Positions 3,153 through 63,101 are shown, counted from the stretch's first letter. The stretch: 64,000 nucleotides of DNA from Clostridia bacterium (GCA_045615705.1 JAZLFH010000012.1:4417-68416), one strand, 5' to 3'. The notes: generated from the sequence alone by a model not told the origin. Numbers and translations: made by a program.

Positions 3153-3770
3153 ATGAGAAACGATAAAGTAGCAATTGCGGTCTTGGTGTCGGGTGGCGGA
3201 ACAAACCTCCAAGCACTTATTGACTCTCAGAAAAAAGGAATATTAAAGAGCGGAGAAATTTCGCTTGTTATATCAAATAATGAAGATGCCTATGCCCTGA
3301 AAAGGGCAAAGGATAATAATATTAAATCTGCCATAATAACAAAAAAAGAATTCGGGACGCGTGAAAACATAGAAAAAGAGATAATAAAAGTTATTGAGAA
3401 TGAAAATATTGACTTAATAATTTTGGCAGGATTTATGACTATTCTTTCAAAGGACTTTACAAAGAAATTTGAAAAAAGGATTTTAAATGTACATCCTTCT
3501 CTTATTCCGTCATTTTGCGGAGAGGGATACTTCGGACTCCGTGTACACGAAGAAGCACTGAAAAAGGGAGTAAAGGTTACCGGTGCAACCGTGCATTTTG
3601 TAAATGAAATTCCGGACGGCGGAGAAATCATTATGCAAAAAGCTGTAAAAGTATTAGATAACGACACGCCAAAAACTCTTCAAAAAAGGGTTATGCGTAT
3701 TGCCGAGTGGAAGATACTCCCGATGTCGGCAGAAATGATTTCACAAAAAATTATTGCGAAGGAGATATAA
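3153..3770 (+). CDS. purN: GAR formyltransferase
   Basis: Motifs VLVSGGGTNLQALID and NVHPSLIP are present. ATG 3153 follows a CAGGAG RBS. Confidence 0.9.
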   Translation: MRNDKVAIAVLVSGGGTNLQALIDSQKKGILKSGEISLVISNNEDAYALKRAKDNNIKSAIITKKEFGTRENIEKEIIKVIENENIDLIILAGFMTILSKDFTKKFEKRILNVHPSLIPSFCGEGYFGLRVHEEALKKGVKVTGATVHFVNEIPDGGEIIMQKAVKVLDNDTPKTLQKRVMRIAEWKILPMSAEMISQKIIAKEI

Positions 3771-36494: not shown

Positions 36495-36674
36495 ACAGAT
36501 GCTACGCATCTTGCGTGCTTGCCCACCCAAATGCTTCGCATTTCGGTACCGGGCTTTGCACCAACTTCGCTAAAAACGGTTATCAACCGTTTTTTTAACG
36601 CTCGTTGCCCTCTCAGGGTTTAAGTCCCAATATAGAAACATTAAAGCAGAGAACATAAAATGTTCTCTGCTTTT
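36495..36674. mobile_element. 180-bp insert between tRNA-Arg and its displaced 3' fragment (remnant or miniature integrative element?)
   Basis: It is bounded by the 18-nt direct repeat. It contains its own terminator next to the tRNA and further mini-hairpins (AGATGC-TAC-GCATCT, AAATGC-TTC-GCATTT). It has no ORF. Confidence 0.35.
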
Positions 36675-55886: not shown

Positions 55887-57266
55887 ATGGGTAAAATGTG
55901 GGCAGGCAGGACAGACGGGAAAACCGAAAAGATTGCCGATGATTTCAATTCATCAATTCATTTTGATAAGAGAATGTACCAAGAGGACATAAGGGGAAGT
56001 ATAGCTCATGCGGTTATGCTCAAAAATCAGGGCATAATCGAAGAATCTGAGGCACTTTCAATTATTGCCGGCTTGGAAGGTATTTTAAACGACTTAAACA
56101 GCGGTGCACTTTTGTTTGATATGGACTGCGAAGATATTCATATGTTCGTGGAAGAAAAACTTACAGAAAGAATAGGCGATGCGGGAAAACGCCTGCACAC
56201 TGCACGAAGCCGTAACGACCAAGTGGCACTTGACATCAGAATGTATCTTAGAAATGAAATTGACGAATTAAAGAAACTTTTAATAAGCCTTTTAGAAGTT
56301 ATAAATAAAAAGGCAAAAGAGTACCAAAATACCGTAATGCCGGGATATACTCATCTCCAAAGGGCTCAACCCATTACATTTTCGCATCACATTTTGGCGT
56401 ATGCCATGATGTTTTCAAGAGATATAACAAGGCTAAACGATTGCAGGAAAAGAATGAATTTCTCGCCGATAGGAAGTTGTGCGTTGGCAGGAACAACATA
56501 CAATACCGACCGCCGTTTTGAGGCTGAGGAACTTGGCTTTTCCGGGATTTGCTTAAACAGTATTGATGGCGTAAGCGACAGAGATTTTTGTATTGAATTA
56601 ATGTCTTGTATCTCAATTATTATGATGCACCTTTCAAGGTTTTCGGAAGAAATTATCCTTTGGTCAAGTCTTGAATTTAAGTTTGTTACACTTTCGGACG
56701 AATACACAACAGGCTCGTCCATTATGCCACAGAAGAAAAATCCCGATATGGCGGAACTTGTCCGTGGTAAGACCGGCAGAGTATACGGCGATTTGATGGC
56801 ACTCTTGACAACACTTAAAGGACTCCCTCTTGCGTATAACAAAGATATGCAGGAGGATAAAGAAAGCATCTTTGATGCCGTAGATACGGTTAAAATGTGC
56901 TTGGAGGTATTTTCCGGAATGCTTGATACTCTGAGGGCAAACGAGGACAAAATGCTTGAAGCATCAAAAGAAGGCTTTATAAATGCAACAGACCTTGCAG
57001 ATTATTTGACAAAAAAAGGCATGCCTTTTCGAAGTGCTTATAAGATTTCAGGCTCTCTTGTAGCATATTGCATTAAAAAGAATAAAACGCTTGAATCACT
57101 TACCATTGATGAGTATAAGGAATTTTCCGAAATCTTCGATGAAGAGGTTTATAAGGCAATAGACTTAACAGAGTGCATAAAAAAGAGAATCAGCGAAGGC
57201 GGAACGGGTGAAGAATCCGTGAAAATGCAGATAGAATATATTGATAAGTTTATAAAAGAAAACTAA
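55887..57266 (+). CDS. argH: argininosuccinate lyase
   Basis: TARSRNDQ and the [12 protein letters not shown] signature are present. Confidence 0.95.
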
Positions 57267-57267
57267 C

Positions 57268-57304
57268 AAAAAGAGCGACAAGCCTTAAATTGTCGCTCTT
57301 TTTA
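57268..57304 (+). terminator. argH terminator
   Basis: The sequence is AAAAGAGCGACA-AGCCTTAAAT-TGTCGCTCTTTTT. Confidence 0.6.
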
Positions 57305-57381
57305 TCAATTTATGCTCAATAGATAGTTTAGCCGTATTTAACTCCAATTATTGTTTATTATGGAATAAATCCTTGTATAAT

Positions 57382-57456
57382 ATGCCTGTGGCGTATTTCA
57401 TGTTGTTAAGCATTTCACTGCGGAGCAATTCCGCAAATCCGACAGAATTTATTTCG
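57382..57456 (+). repeat. word/mini-hairpin array copy on the left flank of the R-M island
   Basis: The sequence is ATGCCTGTGGCGTATTTCA..GCATTTCAC..AAATCCGA..ATTTATTTCG. It parallels 60483-60541 in the same orientation. Confidence 0.6.
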
Positions 57457-57488
57457 TTTTTTCTGAAAAAGGCGATCAATTTCAATAC

Positions 57489-57643
57489 AAATGCACCCCA
57501 CGGTTTTTTGGGGTGCATTTGTCAGTTTGCCGGGGTGCATCGTGGGAAATTGGGTGCATTTGTATTAAAAGTGGAGTTCATCTTGAAAAACGGGCATCAT
57601 TTCACACGATTACTCATTTAATGTAAAATTAGTTTCGGTGCAT
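57489..57643 (+). repeat. 12-bp perfect hairpin followed by phased GGTGCAT direct repeats
   Basis: The hairpin is AAATGCACCCCA/TGGGGTGCATTT. GGTGCAT occurs at 57512, 57534, 57553 and 57637, with degenerate copies near 57575 and 57594. Confidence 0.55.
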
Positions 57644-57676
57644 CAAACATTTTGTTTTAAGTAACAAATATAATAT

Positions 57677-57705
57677 TTGACAAAGCACTTTTTATCTGCT
57701 ATAAT
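57677..57705 (+). promoter_or_regulatory. consensus sigma-A promoter of the methyltransferase gene
   Basis: TTGACA (57677-82), a 17-nt spacer, then TATAAT (57700-05). The palindrome CACAATGTG lies at 57711-19. Confidence 0.55.
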
Positions 57706-57738
57706 AAAAACACAATGTGATTTATAGGAGAATGGGTT

Positions 57739-59274
57739 ATGAAAGCAAATTATAACAAGTTATTAAAAATGCTTATTGACCGGAAAATGACCAAAACCGA
57801 CCTTCGTGAGCAGGCTAAAATCAGTTCAAGCACTCTTGCAAAAATCGGAAAAGAAGAAATGGTAAGTTCCGATGTTCTGACAAAAATTTGTAATGTGCTT
57901 TCTTGTGATATCGGTGATATCGTTGAACTTGTCAGAGATGAAAATGAAGAATACGAAGTAATCAATTCTCCGGGTAAATTAAAAGTTGTTTCGTTGTTTT
58001 CCGGTGCCGGTGGTATGGATTTAGGATTTATTAATGCCGGTTTTGAAATTATTTGGGCAAACGACTTTTTTCAAGAAGCCGTTGCTTCATATCGCAAAAA
58101 TATTGGTAAACATATGATACACGGAGATATCACAAAAATTAAAAACGAAGATATCCCCAACGGTGCGGATGTAATAATCGGGGGTTTTCCTTGCCAAGGT
58201 TTTTCGGTTGCCAACACCAGGCGTTCAATGGAAGACAAGCGTAATTTCTTATATAAAGAAATGCTTAGAATAATTAAAGATAAAAAGCCAAAATTCTTTG
58301 TAGCTGAAAATGTAAAAGGTATTTTGTCAATTGAAAACGGTAAAGTTTTTGAGATGATAAAGTCGGATTTTGAAAATTTAGGTTATGATGTTGAACCAAG
58401 GGTTTTGAATGCAGCTGAATACGGTGTGGCTCAAGCAAGAGAACGAGTTGTAATTATCGGAAACAGATTGGGAATAGAGAATCCTTTCCCCGCAAAAACC
58501 CATTATCTTCCCGGATTTGAAGACAAAAAATTGTTTCCTGCATTTACGACGGAACAGGCTATTGGTTTCTTGTCTAATATAAAAATATCTAACAAGCCTA
58601 AAACTATCAAAATTGAAGATTTGAAAAAGCACATAAAAGCAACGGGTATTAAAGACGAAGATGGATTTTTTGAAATACTTGGAGTAGATAAAAATTGCAA
58701 TGAAATCTCAATTACAAATCATATTGCTTCCGAAAATGTAGCAGATACATTTTGGGGAAGAGAGTATGAAGTAAATCAGCATGACATTTGTGATTACTTG
58801 AGATTTTGGAGAGATAAAGCCGGTTGGACAACTAAAAAGGTTGATGAGCATTTTGGATATTCTTACACAGCCGGACATTGGTTTAGAAAAGATAACAATT
58901 CCGGAAGTATACCGAGTCCGGAAGATTGGTGGGAACTCAAAAAAATCTTTGGATTTGATGATAAATACGATAAAGCCGTTACCACTCTTGTAGAAAAAGA
59001 AATAAAATTTGAACAGTCTTTGAGAATTACCAACTGGGATAGGCCGAGCGATACAATTACGGCAACAAGCCCGGAAATTCATGTTAATAAAAAAAGAAGA
59101 TTAAGTGCAAGGGAATGTGCAATTCTTCAGTCTTTCCCTGTTACATATGAATTTACGGGAAGCCTTAATAAAATGTATACACAAATCGGCAATGCTGTGC
59201 CGGTTAAATTGGCAACTAAAATAGCAACAGGAATAAAAGATGCAATAGAAAAAAATAATGAGAGTGAAAAATAA
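57739..59274 (+). CDS. DNA (cytosine-5)-methyltransferase with an N-terminal XRE-type HTH domain
   Basis: The HTH reads LREQAKISSSTLAKIGKEEMVSSDVLTKICNVLSCDIGDI. The m5C motifs are I FSGAGG, IV GFPCQGFS, VI ENV, VIII QARERV, IX RRLSARECAILQSFP and X GNAVPV. The variable region between VIII and IX is long. Confidence 0.9.
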   Translation: MKANYNKLLKMLIDRKMTKTDLREQAKISSSTLAKIGKEEMVSSDVLTKICNVLSCDIGDIVELVRDENEEYEVINSPGKLKVVSLFSGAGGMDLGFINAGFEIIWANDFFQEAVASYRKNIGKHMIHGDITKIKNEDIPNGADVIIGGFPCQGFSVANTRRSMEDKRNFLYKEMLRIIKDKKPKFFVAENVKGILSIENGKVFEMIKSDFENLGYDVEPRVLNAAEYGVAQARERVVIIGNRLGIENPFPAKTHYLPGFEDKKLFPAFTTEQAIGFLSNIKISNKPKTIKIEDLKKHIKATGIKDEDGFFEILGVDKNCNEISITNHIASENVADTFWGREYEVNQHDICDYLRFWRDKAGWTTKKVDEHFGYSYTAGHWFRKDNNSGSIPSPEDWWELKKIFGFDDKYDKAVTTLVEKEIKFEQSLRITNWDRPSDTITATSPEIHVNKKRRLSARECAILQSFPVTYEFTGSLNKMYTQIGNAVPVKLATKIATGIKDAIEKNNESEK

Positions 59275-59295
59275 TTTCACTCTCATAGGTAGAAT

Positions 59296-60105
59296 TTATT
59301 CTTCTGCAGAAACATCAAAATTATCAAGATAGAATTGAAGTTTTCTTTTAACATAGTCGGACATATCGGGATTTTTATGTATTATCCGAACTCTTTTCTT
59401 GCTCCCCGGTAAAAGTTCAAATGTTGGAATTGCACTAAAATTATAGCGTGCTTTACCTGGATTTTTACCTGCTTTTAGCGGTCTAGACCCATAATGCTCT
59501 TGTAATTTACCGTTTGGCAAACTCATAATAGAGATAAGTTCACAACGCTGTGTTACGGAACTGTTTAATAAGCAGACAAAATAAGTTAAAGTAATCTTCT
59601 TATCACCATTTGTTTTTGTATAAAACTTCGGCAAGTTCGGACGGTACTCTTCATGATGTTCATTGGGCCTGCCGGCATTTTTTATTATTGTCCCGGCATA
59701 TGAATTTTGATTTTCACCAACAAAAATACAAGTATTGAAATCTCCTATGTTATCTTGCGATGTTGTGCCTTCACTTGTTGTAACACTTTTTAAATCAATA
59801 TGAATATAAGCATCATCAACCTCGAAAAACAGGTCTGAACTAACAGGACATGAATTGGGTTTTCCGGCGATTTTTCCGTTTAATAAAGCATATACGATTC
59901 TCTCACTACCGACATCAAATAATGAAATGCCACCGTCATCATTTCCATACAAACCTTGCCAGTCGTTCCTTATGTCATCCATCGACAGCATACCGGCAAC
60001 TATTTCATCTTCGACAAATTTTAAGAAATACCAATATTTCATTAAATATTTATATTCAAGGGCTTCCAATTCTTCAAGAGAAATATTTGAATTATCAAAC
60101 GACAT
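59296..60105 (-). CDS. candidate type II restriction endonuclease (partner of the m5C methyltransferase)
   Basis: It lies convergent to the MTase, 21 bp away. It has a PD-(D/E)XK-like segment SSDLFFEVDDAYIHIDLK. I recognise no family. The third ATG (60105) has GGAG at good spacing. Confidence 0.5.
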   Translation of the reverse strand: MSFDNSNISLEELEALEYKYLMKYWYFLKFVEDEIVAGMLSMDDIRNDWQGLYGNDDGGISLFDVGSERIVYALLNGKIAGKPNSCPVSSDLFFEVDDAYIHIDLKSVTTSEGTTSQDNIGDFNTCIFVGENQNSYAGTIIKNAGRPNEHHEEYRPNLPKFYTKTNGDKKITLTYFVCLLNSSVTQRCELISIMSLPNGKLQEHYGSRPLKAGKNPGKARYNFSAIPTFELLPGSKKRVRIIHKNPDMSDYVKRKLQFYLDNFDVSAEE

Positions 60106-60205
60106 AAACACCATCTCCATTAGTATATGTAGATAATTTTATCATATAATGTCGATTTTGTCTATAAAAATTTGGGTATGTGATTTTAATAAAAAAATAA
60201 TGCAA

Positions 60206-60304
60206 TGATGTGATGTGTTCCATTCACTCACCGTAGGTGAACATCATGTCCGAAGGACACATCACACACGAAGTGTGCATCATGTTCCGTGAGGAACACA
60301 TCGT
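60206..60304 (-). repeat. variant word/mini-hairpin array (CATCA/GATG words)
   Basis: The hairpins are TCACC-GTA-GGTGA, TGTCC-GAA-GGACA, CACAC-GAA-GTGTG and TGTTCC-GTGA-GGAACA. They are separated by ACATCA(T/C) words. The outer pairing is GATGTGTTCC/GGAACACATC. Confidence 0.6.
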
Positions 60305-60418
60305 TCAAAAAAGTCCCTTTTGTTTTATCACATAGTTTTAAAATATCAACGAAAAAGACATTGATAAATTTTTAAGTTTAGATTCAGCCATGTTGTTATC
60401 ACCTCAAATATTTTATTT

Positions 60419-60541
60419 AGTGAAATATCGGCTTTGCGGATGTGAAATGAAATAAGTCCTGTTACGCGCGCAGGCATTTCACACGCCGTAGGCGTATTTC
60501 ACGCACGAAGTGCATTTCACAAATCCGAAGGATTTATTTCG
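60419..60541 (-). repeat. word/mini-hairpin array trailing tRNA-Tyr and its terminator
   Basis: The minus strand has GTGAAATG, GTGAAATA and GTGAAATG, followed by CATTTCAC and ATTTCAC. The hairpins are AATCC-TTC-GGATT, GCAC-TTC-GTGC and ACGCC-TAC-GGCGT. Confidence 0.7.
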
Positions 60542-60544
60542 CTT

Positions 60545-60585
60545 AAAAAACCTCTTTTGTCTTGGTAGACAAAAGAGGTTTTTTT
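60545..60585 (-). terminator. terminator downstream of tRNA-Tyr
   Basis: The sequence is AAAAAACCTCTTTTGTC-TTGGTA-GACAAAAGAGGTTTTTTT. Confidence 0.6.
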
Positions 60586-60588
60586 ACA

Positions 60589-60673
60589 TGGTGGAGGAGG
60601 GTGGATTCGGACCACCGAAGTCATAGACAACAGATTTACAGTCTGCCCCCTTTGGCCGCTCGGGAACTCCTCC
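60589..60673 (-). tRNA. tRNA-Tyr (GTA), long variable arm
   Basis: The minus strand reads GGAGGAGTTCCCGAGCGGCCAAAGGGGGCAGACTGTAAATCTGT...GGTCCGAATCCACCCTCCTCCACCA. Confidence 0.95.
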
Positions 60674-60680
60674 ATAAAAA

Positions 60681-60756
60681 TGGAGCTGGTGATAGGACTC
60701 GAACCTACGACCTGCTGATTACAAATCAGCTGCTCTACCTATTGAGCTACACCAGC
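60681..60756 (-). tRNA. tRNA-Thr (TGT)
   Basis: The minus strand reads GCTGGTGTAGCTCAATAGGTAGAGCAGCTGATTTGTAATCAGCAGGTCGTAGGTTCGAGTCCTATCACCAGCTCCA. Confidence 0.95.
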
Positions 60757-60772
60757 ACTTGAAACGATAGTT

Positions 60773-60801
60773 ATGATAACATAAAAAAAGCGATAAGTCA
60801 A
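60773..60801 (-). promoter_or_regulatory. sigma-A promoter of the tRNA-Thr/Tyr unit
   Basis: On the minus strand: TTGACT (60801-60796), a 17-nt spacer, then TATCAT (60778-60773). Confidence 0.5.
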
Positions 60802-60874
60802 CATATTTTTTCAAAAATTTTTTATTGATTTAGTTTTTAAATAATGCTACTATGTATTAAAGGAGAGTGTGTGT

Positions 60875-62515
60875 ATGAAAATAACAAAAAAATTGTGCAA
60901 TGGTATTAAAAACCTCCCGAAGAATCTTTTAAACACAGTAATTCGATTCCCGCTTCCGAGCATTTTTATAGCAGTATTTTTCACGCTTTGCGAAATTATG
61001 GTTTACAATAATTTTGAAGGCATTGAAAAAATGCTTACTTCAACGCTGTTTGCATTTTTCCTTTCATATTCGGCTACATTTTTGGCGGAAAATAAAAAGC
61101 CGATAATTAAGATTTTTCTTCCGGTAATACCCATTTTTTTGGGGATTATATATTACTTGTCGGATATTGGTTATCTTTGCGAGGCTGCAATTATAATCGC
61201 TTCGGCATCGCTTGCGATTTTGGCGATGGACTTTTTTGACAGAAAGTACTTTGAAGAGCATCTTTCAATTTATCTAAGTCGCCTTTTTACTGCATTTGTG
61301 TTTGCTTCCGTGTTTATGGGAGGCGTGGCATTAATCCTTGCGGGTATAGATATACTCTTGATAACGGTATCTTATAAAACTTACGAAACATTCGTCTTTA
61401 TTTCATACGCACTTATGATGCCGTTACTGTTTCTTTCGTGGATTCCCAAGAAAAATGACGAAGTTAAAACTCCAAAGGTAATAAATCTTTTGTGGACATA
61501 TATAGTGATGCCCCTTATTGCCGTCTTTACGGTAGTATTGTATGTTTACTACTTAAAACTTCTGATGACGAGGTCGCTTCCTATTGGTCTTTTGGGTGGA
61601 ATTTCACTTATATACCTTGCTGTATGCATTCCGTCTGCACTCATGTGTAAAAATTTTGAGAGCAAGTTCGTAAAAGTGATGATTTCTGTTATTCCGTACC
61701 TTATTTTGCCGGTAATTGCAATTCTTTTTTGGGCGGACTTCCGCCAGATTCTCAACTATGGCTACTCAATAACAAGACTTTTGGTTTTGCTGGGCGGAAT
61801 AGCATCTTTCGTGTCTGCACTTCTGTTTATAATAGGTAAGGGAAAAATGTGCCGTTTTGTGCTTCTTACGATAACTGTGTTGGCACTTGTCTTTGCGATT
61901 TTCGGCGAGAAAATAGTTTTTGAGAGCCAAAACAAGCGTTTCCATGATGTGCTTGTAAGAAACAATATGTTAATAAATGGAGAAATTGTGCAAAACGATT
62001 CTGTTTGTGATAATGACAAGAGAGAACTTTATTCTATTTTAAGATATTTAAGTTTTAACAATCTTTCGCTTCCGAGCGATTACCCGTCCGAAAAGTTTGC
62101 AGATGCAAAAGAAATTCTTGGCTTTGAAGATGTCATTGTTCCTGCAAAAAGCAATGTAAAACACGCAGGACTTCAATTTGAGGAGTTTTCGTTCCCATTG
62201 GAGGGATATGACTATATTATTTGTCCTGCTACCTTTAAAATTGATGACAGAAACAAAAATAACATTGGACTTAACGCCTACACGGAGGACACTGTCATTT
62301 ATGTAAAAGACGGAGATAATCTGATTTTAAAAGCCGACACGAATGAATTTATCGAAAGCCTTTTTGAAATGAAAAAAGAATACTACACACCTGAGGAAAT
62401 GACATTTGAATATGAAAACGAGAATGTAAAAATAAAAGCACTTATTATAAGTGCCTATAAAAGTGATACTTATGTTGATGTACATGTAAGAGATATTCTT
62501 ATAAAAATCAAGTGA
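60875..62515 (+). CDS. polytopic membrane protein with a C-terminal soluble domain (DUF4153-like)
   Basis: About 10 hydrophobic segments span the first 340 aa or so, followed by a hydrophilic tail of about 200 aa. ATG 60875 follows an AAAGGAG RBS. Confidence 0.55.
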   Translation: MKITKKLCNGIKNLPKNLLNTVIRFPLPSIFIAVFFTLCEIMVYNNFEGIEKMLTSTLFAFFLSYSATFLAENKKPIIKIFLPVIPIFLGIIYYLSDIGYLCEAAIIIASASLAILAMDFFDRKYFEEHLSIYLSRLFTAFVFASVFMGGVALILAGIDILLITVSYKTYETFVFISYALMMPLLFLSWIPKKNDEVKTPKVINLLWTYIVMPLIAVFTVVLYVYYLKLLMTRSLPIGLLGGISLIYLAVCIPSALMCKNFESKFVKVMISVIPYLILPVIAILFWADFRQILNYGYSITRLLVLLGGIASFVSALLFIIGKGKMCRFVLLTITVLALVFAIFGEKIVFESQNKRFHDVLVRNNMLINGEIVQNDSVCDNDKRELYSILRYLSFNNLSLPSDYPSEKFADAKEILGFEDVIVPAKSNVKHAGLQFEEFSFPLEGYDYIICPATFKIDDRNKNNIGLNAYTEDTVIYVKDGDNLILKADTNEFIESLFEMKKEYYTPEEMTFEYENENVKIKALIISAYKSDTYVDVHVRDILIKIK

Positions 62516-63101
62516 GCATTATAGAACCAATCCACATTTTAACCTTTCGGTAAGATGAAAACTCTCTTGCAATTTCAAAAAGACGGTCAATGTTTTTCTC
62601 GCTATCTCTTGTGTATGCCGAGAATGCAGAAAAAATAATCTTATCGTCAAATTTATCGGAGTTTTTGAAAAGTTCACACATTGCTCTTTCACGGCTCGCA
62701 ACAAGAAACTTACCGTTATTTACGGTGTCCGAGTAAAGAGTATCATCTTTGTAGTGCAAAAGTTTTACGGGCGGAAAATCAAGCCTGGACTTAGATATTT
62801 TGACACCGTTTCCGACACTTATGTAGAAATAGTCTGGCTTTTCTGTATACCCGTAGTAGTTAAGGGCAGATAATGACGACAAAATACACTCGCCGTAACG
62901 GCGAGTGATTATTTTTATCGGGTCAATTTCGTCAAAGTCAATGTATCGGTACGCATCGCCTTTAAGTTCAATGGTTCCTCTTTTCATAAGAAGGTCAAGA
63001 ATACCTTTATTTATTCTTAAATGTTTTGCAGTTTCAAGCGGTAAAGTACCACCGTTTTTTGCAAAAGTCGTTTTAACCTTTAAAACTTCATCTGCCAGCA
63101 T
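62508..63101 (-). CDS. AbiEi-like antitoxin-domain protein (no AbiEii partner visible)
   Basis: The N-terminal pattern ...FAKNGGTLPLETAKHLRINKGILDLLMKRGTIELKGDAYRY... and the central ILSSLSALNYYGYTEKPDYFYISV resemble AbiEi family proteins. Confidence 0.45.
   Translation of the reverse strand: MLADEVLKVKTTFAKNGGTLPLETAKHLRINKGILDLLMKRGTIELKGDAYRYIDFDEIDPIKIITRRYGECILSSLSALNYYGYTEKPDYFYISVGNGVKISKSRLDFPPVKLLHYKDDTLYSDTVNNGKFLVASRERAMCELFKNSDKFDDKIIFSAFSAYTRDSEKNIDRLFEIAREFSSYRKVKMWIGSIMLT

Follow-up and report, generated by a model that had tools for sequence, protein, structure and literature searches.

A restriction-modification unit of foreign origin among Gut-1-type repeat arrays behind a tRNA-Tyr gene in a Clostridia genome

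In the genome of a Clostridia bacterium a restriction-modification (R-M) gene pair lies between argH and a tRNA-Tyr/tRNA-Thr operon, bracketed by two hairpin arrays of the Gut-1 type (RF01706), array L on the left and array R on the right, which raises the question of how the pair came to lie there. All positions below refer to the 64,000-nt stretch that was analysed (GCA_045615705.1 JAZLFH010000012.1:4417-68416; hereafter the window); the genome itself, a metagenome-assembled genome (MAG) of 75 contigs and 82% completeness, is labelled G000, and its other contigs C5, C18, C19, etc. A first-pass annotation of this DNA had proposed that the pair was inserted into an array with duplication, or was captured by recombination between array copies, and that the arrays may act as landing pads for accessory cassettes. 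On re-reading 56800-61400 the two flank sequences proved to be as that annotation had quoted them, in the same orientation and word order, with the covariance model matching both on the minus strand; the right copy was indeed the trailer of tRNA-Tyr, a terminator followed by a Gut-1 array, and the interval held what had been listed, i.e., the R-M pair, two further repeat blocks (57477-57608 and 60206-60300) and a 17-codon open reading frame (ORF; 60392-60339, minus strand).

The explanation that we prefer, with a probability of about 0.7, is illegitimate recombination in a repeat-rich tRNA trailer, by which a foreign R-M unit would have been spliced among repeat fragments. The evidence for it comes from the origin and boundaries of the R-M pair, from the kinship of the arrays, and from one junction that can be read.

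The R-M pair, its origin and its boundaries

The pair is foreign to its host lineage. Among 87 species genomes of the order, the endonuclease gene R was found in one, G000 itself, and was absent from the other 86, and the homologs of R with 70–97% identity belong to Anaerovoracaceae, Gemella, Mycoplasma, Lachnospiraceae and Anaerovibrio. The closest copy (L099) matches R with 97% and a C-terminal fragment of the methyltransferase M with 99% protein identity (90% at the DNA level over 1205 nt), and it lies directly after a glycogen phosphorylase gene (glgP) whose product is 45% identical to that of G000; the best match to argH among ~15 billion proteins has 75% identity. The pair was thus acquired horizontally, and as it is absent from all relatives and has a near-identical copy in a distant host, its import was recent. 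The AT-richness of the interval, which had been noted by eye, is real but modest: the GC content of the R-M unit is 34.4% compared to 37.6 ± 2.4% in genome windows, placing it at the 8.7th percentile of 2377 such windows; the GC content at third codon positions of the R-M genes is 0.28 compared to 0.36–0.39 in neighbouring genes (9–10th percentile of 702 long ORFs), and tetranucleotide usage is ordinary, 27% of windows deviating more. We rejected composition as sole proof of foreign origin, as it is too weak alone.

R is paired with a methyltransferase carrying a helix-turn-helix (HTH) domain in six other contexts (L099-L104), and the two genes are convergent wherever both are complete. The DNA homology with these contexts ends at 57655 on the left (in L100/L101, where the pair has a MobC-type neighbourhood) and at 60131 on the right (in L099), and a Gut-1 search of the six contexts found no match, even with E relaxed to 0.1. 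Based on these homology edges and Gut-1-free contexts, the transferable unit is ~2.5 kb long (~57655-60131) and does not include the arrays. Its ends lie ~200 nt from array L and ~340 nt from array R, and between them are a repeat block (block B) on the left, and a third array (array C) and a gene stump on the right. No integrase ORF was found between argH and the tRNAs or among the neighbouring genes, and a search for a repeat of the tRNA-Tyr/Thr 3' end in 56000-60588 gave a best match of 11 nt, which is chance level; the model of a tRNA-integrated island with an integrase and att sites was rejected on both counts.

The features expected of a type II system are present, in that M is a DNA methyltransferase, the adjacent R has a nuclease fold with catalytic residues, and the two are inherited together (L099-L104). 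Both have normal lengths for their families and, judging from their sequences, form an intact type II pair. R gave no match in searches of Pfam or NCBIfam profiles or of PDB sequences; 554 R homologs carry the PF27366 MwoI_N domain. The ATG at 60105 is the start used by homologs, and in an alignment of 21 of these the motif D91...D104-L-K106 (PD...DxK) is invariant. An AlphaFold model of R (predicted local distance difference test (pLDDT) score 82, predicted template modelling (pTM) score 0.82) matches BglI (1dmu) and SfiI (2ezv) only, with an E-value of 1e-9, a probability of 1.0 and TM-scores of 0.56–0.61. On this model R is predicted to be a BglI/SfiI/MwoI-like type II restriction endonuclease; it is like these enzymes in predicted fold, in its invariant PD...D-x-K motif and in its size of ~270 residues, but it has just 14–16% sequence identity to BglI and SfiI and is partnered with a C5-methyltransferase that has an HTH. 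The promoter-like site for R falls in window-specific DNA (60132-60205), outside the shared unit. Three of the other contexts (L102, L103 and L104) have a second, diverged MwoI_N-family gene (~320 residues) between R and M, which is missing here and in L100/L101.

M has strong matches to PF00145 (1.2e-81, profile positions 1-323 of 324) and TIGR00675 (3e-77), and to PF13443 (HTH_26; 2e-16) at residues 7-66, i.e., its N-terminus is a Cro/C1 HTH domain; PADLOC classed it as MTase_II. Its best PDB sequence matches are M.HaeIII (1.4e-51) and M.HhaI, and the HTH part matches the 3tyr regulator (1.3e-15). The M promoter is a 12/12 sigma-70 match, with a -35 TTGACA starting at 57677 and a -10 TATAAT ending at 57705, and AAATATAATATTT, a palindrome at 57666-57678, runs into the -35; all three elements are kept in L100/L101, at 74% overall DNA identity. 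A second palindrome, CACAATGTG at 57711-57719, downstream of the -10 box, is not kept there. With its HTH fused N-terminally to the C5-methyltransferase, M has the SsoII-type arrangement, as M.SsoII and M.Ecl18kI are C5-methyltransferases with an N-terminal regulatory HTH (PMC3978073, PMC2760811). M resembles them in having an HTH region of ~70 residues before the C5 domain and a palindrome at the methyltransferase promoter, and by this analogy we infer that M likely represses itself through its HTH on the conserved palindrome, a putative operator. It differs from them in that its HTH is of the HTH_26/XRE type and that M and R are convergent, not divergent; because of this convergence, the HTH could directly reach only the M promoter.

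The Gut-1-type arrays and the joints around the R-M unit

The gathering score of Gut-1 is 50 bits, and matches below it were collected by a relaxed covariance-model search. Array R is a full-length match with 75.5 bits (E-value 2.5e-13), above the threshold; array L is also full-length but is degenerate, with two broken hairpins and a score of 36.7 bits, which is below the threshold and above chance (E-values 9e-5 in 3.6 kb and 8e-6 per genome). The match in array C (60217-60285, minus strand), with 29.6 bits, is likewise below the threshold; it has the same orientation but a different word (GATG/CATC). Arrays L and C therefore do not belong to the family by the Rfam rule, and they are decayed or variant relatives of Gut-1. 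The second arm of the tRNA-Tyr trailer array, which is inverted, gives a weak match on the plus strand (60403-60458), and has a 97% match to second arms on contigs C19 and C18.

Elsewhere in G000 there are further members of the family, with 11 Gut-1 matches above the threshold and several below. Eight array loci are linked to tRNAs (Lys, Tyr, Arg-CCG, Cys, Trp, Asn, Leu-AAG and Arg-ACG), all on the tRNA strand behind the tRNA and a terminator, seven of them at 29–60 nt and one at 231 nt. The association of tRNA-Thr-Tyr with Gut-1 was seen in two other genera as well. G000 has few orphan arrays; arrays L and C, two of these, lie behind neither a tRNA nor any other terminator, unlike a copy on C19. 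Behind the array on contigs C33 and C5 comes a gene for a four-helix-bundle protein of 112–114 residues, whose homolog in a relative (L125) is assigned by Pfam to PF05635, the 23S rRNA intervening-sequence (IVS) protein.

Arrays L and R are 74% identical, and the longest exact words that they have in common are 11 nt. Each is closer to arrays on other contigs: array R has 96% identity to the arrays C19a and C33a, and array L is nearest to the four-module array in the tRNA-Arg(CCG) trailer on C18 (80%; by BLAST 78% over 99 nt at C18:32436-32538, E-value 9e-14). Because its nearest relative has four modules, the extra module that had been remarked on in array L is explained. Array L is the most decayed copy in G000, and is for that reason old, not new. 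The two flanks are thus no sister copies but independent members of a dispersed family that differ in age.

Weinberg et al. 2010 (PMC2864571) list Gut-1 as a likely non-coding RNA to which no function is assigned and which is known from gut metagenomes only. Measured against that motif, array R reaches the full score and has GUGAAAU words between its three hairpins, and the G000 copies stand behind tRNAs on the same strand; arrays L and C, in contrast, are below the threshold, array C uses a GAUG word, and the copies act at the DNA level as dispersed, duplicating and decaying repeats. The repetitive extragenic palindromic (REP) sequences and bacterial interspersed mosaic elements (BIME) of enterobacteria are short hairpin units in arrays at the 3' ends of transcription units. 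The Gut-1 arrays are like these in forming hairpin arrays after stop codons or terminators, in having many diverged copies, and in local duplications, but they have a grammar of their own, a 7-nt word plus a tri- or tetraloop mini-hairpin, with two arms inverted to each other, and they strongly favour tRNA trailers as sites. No transposase like the REP-associated tyrosine transposases (RAYT) was identified for them.

The right-hand side of the unit contains a junction that can be read. Array C with the adjacent AAAGGGACTTTTTT matches the tRNA-Leu(AAG) trailer at C36:4536-4650 over 115 nt with 94.8% identity, and this homology starts in the loop and 3' half of the C36 terminator. Directly on the tRNA-proximal side of array C, the 17-codon ORF, which has a Shine-Dalgarno sequence, aligns to the 5'-terminal 79 nt of the C33 and C5 four-helix-bundle genes (52–53 identities of 79, one frameshift, ~27 codons), a score that was reached in none of 5000 shuffles. 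In tblastn the match comes as two segments, 1-15 and 13-28, and the ORF sits exactly where the intact genes follow the arrays on C33 and C5. What had been listed as a tiny ORF, with its perfect ribosome-binding site, can thus be recognized as the stump of a four-helix-bundle gene (23S rRNA IVS protein or PF05635-type). Stump and half terminator overlap in AAGGGAC (~60317-60323), 7 nt that are present in both parental types, and no tblastn signal of the remainder of the gene was found to the left of the insert. This junction has the signature of an illegitimate, microhomology-mediated joining with loss of DNA, and not of a site-specific insertion or a crossover within an array.

On the left the fragments are of a similar kind. 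On the minus strand, GATCGCCTTTTT, apparently a terminator 3' half, comes before array L. At the end of block B there is one half of a terminator-like hairpin, of which a related element in another MAG has both halves, and then an array-like fragment of 15 nt (CATCATTTCACACG). Its words TACAAATGCACCC and GGGTGCATTTGT, phased at ~21 nt, and its 14-bp hairpin are unique in G000, and relatives were found in unrelated contexts in intergenic DNA of ~9 Clostridia MAGs (L130, L132, L143, L149, L150, L154, L160, L161 and L163). Block B represents an uncatalogued repeat or protein-binding array of a family distinct from Gut-1. It has no homology in L099-L104 and lies outside the transferable R-M unit. 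We also considered block B as an operator array for the HTH of M and rejected this, as it is not kept with the R-M genes in L100-L104 and its relatives have no R-M genes. Given the half terminators at arrays C and L and the half hairpin at block B, several fragments appear to end in hairpins.

Illegitimate recombination weighed against other explanations

We propose that the locus started like other tRNA loci of G000, as a tRNA-Thr/tRNA-Tyr operon followed by its terminator, a two-armed Gut-1 array and a small gene for a four-helix-bundle protein. At least one event of microhomology-mediated illegitimate recombination would then have cut the four-helix-bundle gene after ~27 codons and joined it to the 3' half of a tRNA-Leu(AAG)-type terminator and its array, continuing into the R-M unit (~57655-60131), with R, the shared terminator hairpin and the convergent M, whose HTH most likely represses its own promoter via the conserved palindrome. 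To the left of the unit would follow block B, from another repeat family, the older, decayed orphan array L, and the argH terminator. The bracketing arrays would then be independent copies of a family dispersed at the 3' ends of tRNA and other units, and neither a target-site duplication nor the ends of the R-M unit. The sequences themselves show the identities, the limits of homology, the unit's foreign origin, the stump and the half terminator; the order of these events, and a proneness of hairpin-rich DNA to break here, are what we infer from the fragments.

The R-M pair is an everyday case of a selfish defence module on the move between distantly related gut anaerobes, and one that is well delimited, by the limits of the unit, by a near-identical copy in a second host and by a breakpoint with microhomology. 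In this genome Gut-1 behaves as a dispersed, decaying DNA repeat with fragments that mark rearrangement junctions, which bears on whether it is an RNA gene at all; and direct repeats around a cassette are no evidence of target duplication when the repeat family is multi-copy. In its components, a mobile R-M unit and Gut-1 repeats, the locus adds to known kinds.

Several points weigh against illegitimate recombination as the explanation. The left junction can be placed only within 57460-57655, and the composition of the R-M unit is only mildly deviant. Two of the three C5-methyltransferase R-M systems of G000 lie within ~0.6 kb of an array behind a tRNA, so that the location beside arrays could be other than accidental. 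The MAG is 82% complete. In addition, no conspecific or congeneric genome was found in any collection searched, so there is no empty-site allele from which to read the direction or number of events: in 40 relatives the best argH match has 67% identity, and argH is not beside tRNA-Tyr there; an exact-protein look-up of argH gave no match, a metagenome scan gave a best match of 69%, and in a search of 5.8 billion protein clusters argH was a singleton with the next best at 75%.

The alternative that survives best, which we still regard as unlikely, is that the arrays are preferred recombination sites, either through Campbell-type recombination between dispersed copies or through an array-specific recombinase. 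It is consistent with the stacking of three arrays of three subtypes in one orientation behind tRNA-Tyr, with the terminator 3' half at which orphan C clearly, and orphan L possibly, starts, and with the second R-M system of G000 (with a C-protein gene, i.e., C-R-M), which on C36 stands ~0.6 kb away from the tRNA-Leu(AAG) trailer array that was parental to array C. The capture between array copies that was envisaged at first agrees in part with the data, in that a 115-nt piece of the C36 array locus (95% identity) was brought beside the R gene, but the readable junction is a 7-nt microhomology outside the array homology, and there is no recombinase gene nearby. The suggested search for other accessory genes bracketed by arrays did return one example, in relative G006 (C40), where 141-nt array repeats (96.5% identical, starting in the terminator loop) bracket a cassette of XRE and BspA-LRR genes; however, tex and an FAD-protein gene are also bracketed by array repeats in relatives.

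The landing-pad idea finds no support as a general rule, as the six other R-M contexts have no Gut-1, tex too is bracketed, and none of the four C5-methyltransferase genes in the array-rich relatives G006, G011, G012 and G015 lies near an array; nor does the C22 system of G000. On the count of 0/4 we rejected a general association of C5-methyltransferase genes with arrays in relatives. The 3' flanks of tRNA genes are classic insertion sites. They are insertion hot spots regardless of arrays, and the kilobase-spaced Gut-1 pairs of the same orientation in relatives are mostly just behind separate tRNA genes. In the G006 insert, as compared to G012, the flanking duplication is a 37-nt promoter piece and not an array. 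Because of these points (the 0/4 count, the bracketing of tex and the FAD-protein gene, the separate tRNAs, the promoter-piece duplication and the tRNA flanks as insertion sites) we rate a specific landing-pad function as possible but unsupported, at odds as low as those of preferred recombination at arrays.

A shade more doubtful is a wider claim, that Gut-1 arrays together with the terminator hairpins that abut them are recombination hot spots, at which new DNA is spliced at terminator loops behind tRNAs and older arrays are pushed outward. If that were true, the locus would be a stack of terminator, array R and stump, then half terminator and array C, then the R-M unit, and then half terminator and array L; Gut-1 would be a DNA-level cassette platform, instead of or besides an RNA, and array-bearing tRNA trailers would be places in which defence genes recently gained by uncultured Clostridia could be sought.

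Insertion with long target duplication was reportedly described by Nobusato for some R-M systems. Here it would mean that the R-M pair inserted in one ancestral array and duplicated ~60–75 nt of it on both sides, as had first been suggested from the same orientation and word order of arrays L and R. R-M units are indeed known to insert with target duplications of 30–140 bp, with repeats that are 96–100% identical (43–49 of 45–49 nt) and, for two simple insertions, unique in the genome (Furuta, Abe and Kobayashi 2010, PMC2853133), and the relative G006 (C40) has a 2.4-kb accessory insert with a 37-nt duplication beside arrays. Yet at 74% identity, with 11 nt as their longest exact words, arrays L and R are far from the near-identical flanking direct repeats of >30 bp of the published cases; array R has 96% identity to copies on other contigs, array L is nearest to the four-module type, and the unit abuts neither, as block B, array C and the stump intervene. 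A search for a long target duplication other than the arrays found only chance-level AT-rich matches. We therefore consider this explanation improbable. The catalogue of mobile type II R-M units in PMC2853133 takes in substitutions and tRNA-linked islands besides such insertions. The insert does have the compactness of the units in that study (<20 kb with both genes; here ~3 kb with R and M only), and is further like them in its patchy distribution, in being AT-richer than the host, in its position beside a tRNA and in having direct repeats of >30 bp; it differs in that its flanking repeats belong to a dispersed family and lie off the unit, in having no integrase or tRNA-derived att repeat, and in that one of its junctions, a 7-nt microhomology at which a gene is truncated, has the look of illegitimate recombination or substitution and not of a clean insertion.

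A scenario in which the R-M pair is the older resident, and the arrays are mobile or dispersed repeats that colonised its two sides afterwards, is no more probable. Arrays are numerous, with copies of 92–96% identity across contigs and tandem or local duplications in relatives, where they also bracket housekeeping genes; however, neither array L nor array C follows, in the right orientation, the 3' end of a transcription unit, array C contains part of the terminator of another locus and interrupts a gene, array L as the most decayed copy in the genome is old, and the R-M pair is recent. Least probable is an assembly artefact, i.e., a chimeric contig joined via repeated arrays in a 75-contig, incomplete MAG in which arrays R and C have copies of 92–96% identity elsewhere, since the left side (argH, array L, block B and M) contains no sequence that is repeated in the genome, the junction of stump and half terminator is a unique sequence that a collapse of repeats cannot create, and the repeats are short (~110 nt) and diverged.

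Coordinates and further observations on repeats and cassettes

Table 1. Features of the locus from argH to tRNA-Thr, with positions in the window.
Feature	Position	Strand	Basis or detail
argH (argininosuccinate lyase), left housekeeping flank	55887..57266	+	ORF; PF00206/PF14698
argH hairpin terminator	57260-57311		inverted repeat and terminator scan
Array L, degenerate orphan Gut-1-type	57360..57459	-	four modules and central TTATACAAGGATTTATTCCAT; covariance match 57390-57459
Block B repeat	57477..57608	.	hairpin 57487-57522 and phased GGGTGCATTTGT words
M promoter/operator region (operator putative), left end of conserved R-M unit	57655..57738	+	
M, C5-methyltransferase with HTH	57739..59274	+	511 aa
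Hairpin between convergent M and R, likely shared terminator	59258..59286	.	terminator scan
R, predicted type II restriction endonuclease	59296..60105	-	269 aa; upstream ATG at 60120 gives 274 aa
Promoter-like site for R	60136..60164	-	10/12 match with TG extension
Array C and terminator 3' half	60206..60326	-	array arm 60206-60300; half terminator 60308-60326
Four-helix-bundle gene stump	60310..60405	-	Shine-Dalgarno 60399-60405, ATG 60392
Second, inverted arm and centre of tRNA-Tyr trailer array	60403..60470	+	
Array R, bona fide Gut-1	60471..60544	-	RF01706, 75.5 bits
Intrinsic terminator	60545-60584	-	perfect 18-bp inverted repeat
tRNA-Tyr	60589-60673	-	ARAGORN, Rfam tRNA
tRNA-Thr	60681-60756	-	ARAGORN, Rfam tRNA

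The other two C5-methyltransferase systems of G000 have different surroundings. At C36:4426-7643, tRNA-Leu(AAG) is followed by a terminator, a two-armed GATG-word array, a 16-nt repeat of the tRNA 3' end (GTCCCGTCTCTCGCAC) and a second terminator, after which comes a complete R-M system of a C-protein gene, an endonuclease (259 residues) and a C5-methyltransferase (372 residues), with an HTH gene. Because of the 16-nt repeat, the sequence suggests that the array segment of C36 integrated into the tRNA end as a small cassette. At C22:1143-2882 a third C5-methyltransferase (326 residues) with an adjacent candidate endonuclease of 248 residues lies beside a rubrerythrin gene, with no tRNA or array near.

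The insert in relative G006 was delimited by comparing G006:C40:1-4500 (L105) with its counterpart on G012:C16 (L175), from which a 2.4-kb segment is absent. This segment carries the XRE regulator gene, a gene for a BspA-LRR/copper-amine-oxidase-N surface protein, and a half terminator with an array copy, and it is flanked by two copies of the promoter piece (949-985 and 3362-3398) that are 95% identical; it is a genuine insertion with long target duplication beside arrays.

Two-armed arrays were also found in other dialects, with the words GTGAAGT/ACTTCAC (L120, G015:C12) and GCGATAT/ATATCGC (L125, G006:C15); the L120 array lies between a stop codon and a terminator, i.e., inside a 3' untranslated region. 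Tandem array duplications of 94–95% identity and 200–380 nt spacing were seen at three loci (L110, L111 (G006:C36:7500-10000) and L112), and in one of them the duplicated stretch takes in all of a tRNA-Glu gene and the Gut-1 trailer behind it.

A second dispersed repeat of ~90 nt (…GATGCTTCGCATC…GCCCACCCAAATGCTTCGCATTTCGGTACCGGGC…), which drew no call from ARAGORN or Rfam, occurs at 36497-36543 in the window and at C10:4995, C10:5196, C18:27136, C29:8704 and C36:4813. At least two of the six copies (those on C36 and at 36497 in the window) are next to a tRNA gene, whose 3' end is repeated at the end of the copy; a third, on C10, has a tRNA-like 3' end at its terminus, and no tRNA gene was called near it.

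To the right of the tRNAs, at 62508-63101 on the minus strand, there is an orphan AbiEi-type antitoxin gene (PADLOC AbiEi, 1.8e-23) that has no AbiEii partner and runs into the end of a gene for a DUF4153 membrane protein, which has no homolog in 64 family genomes. The variable region may extend rightward past the tRNAs.

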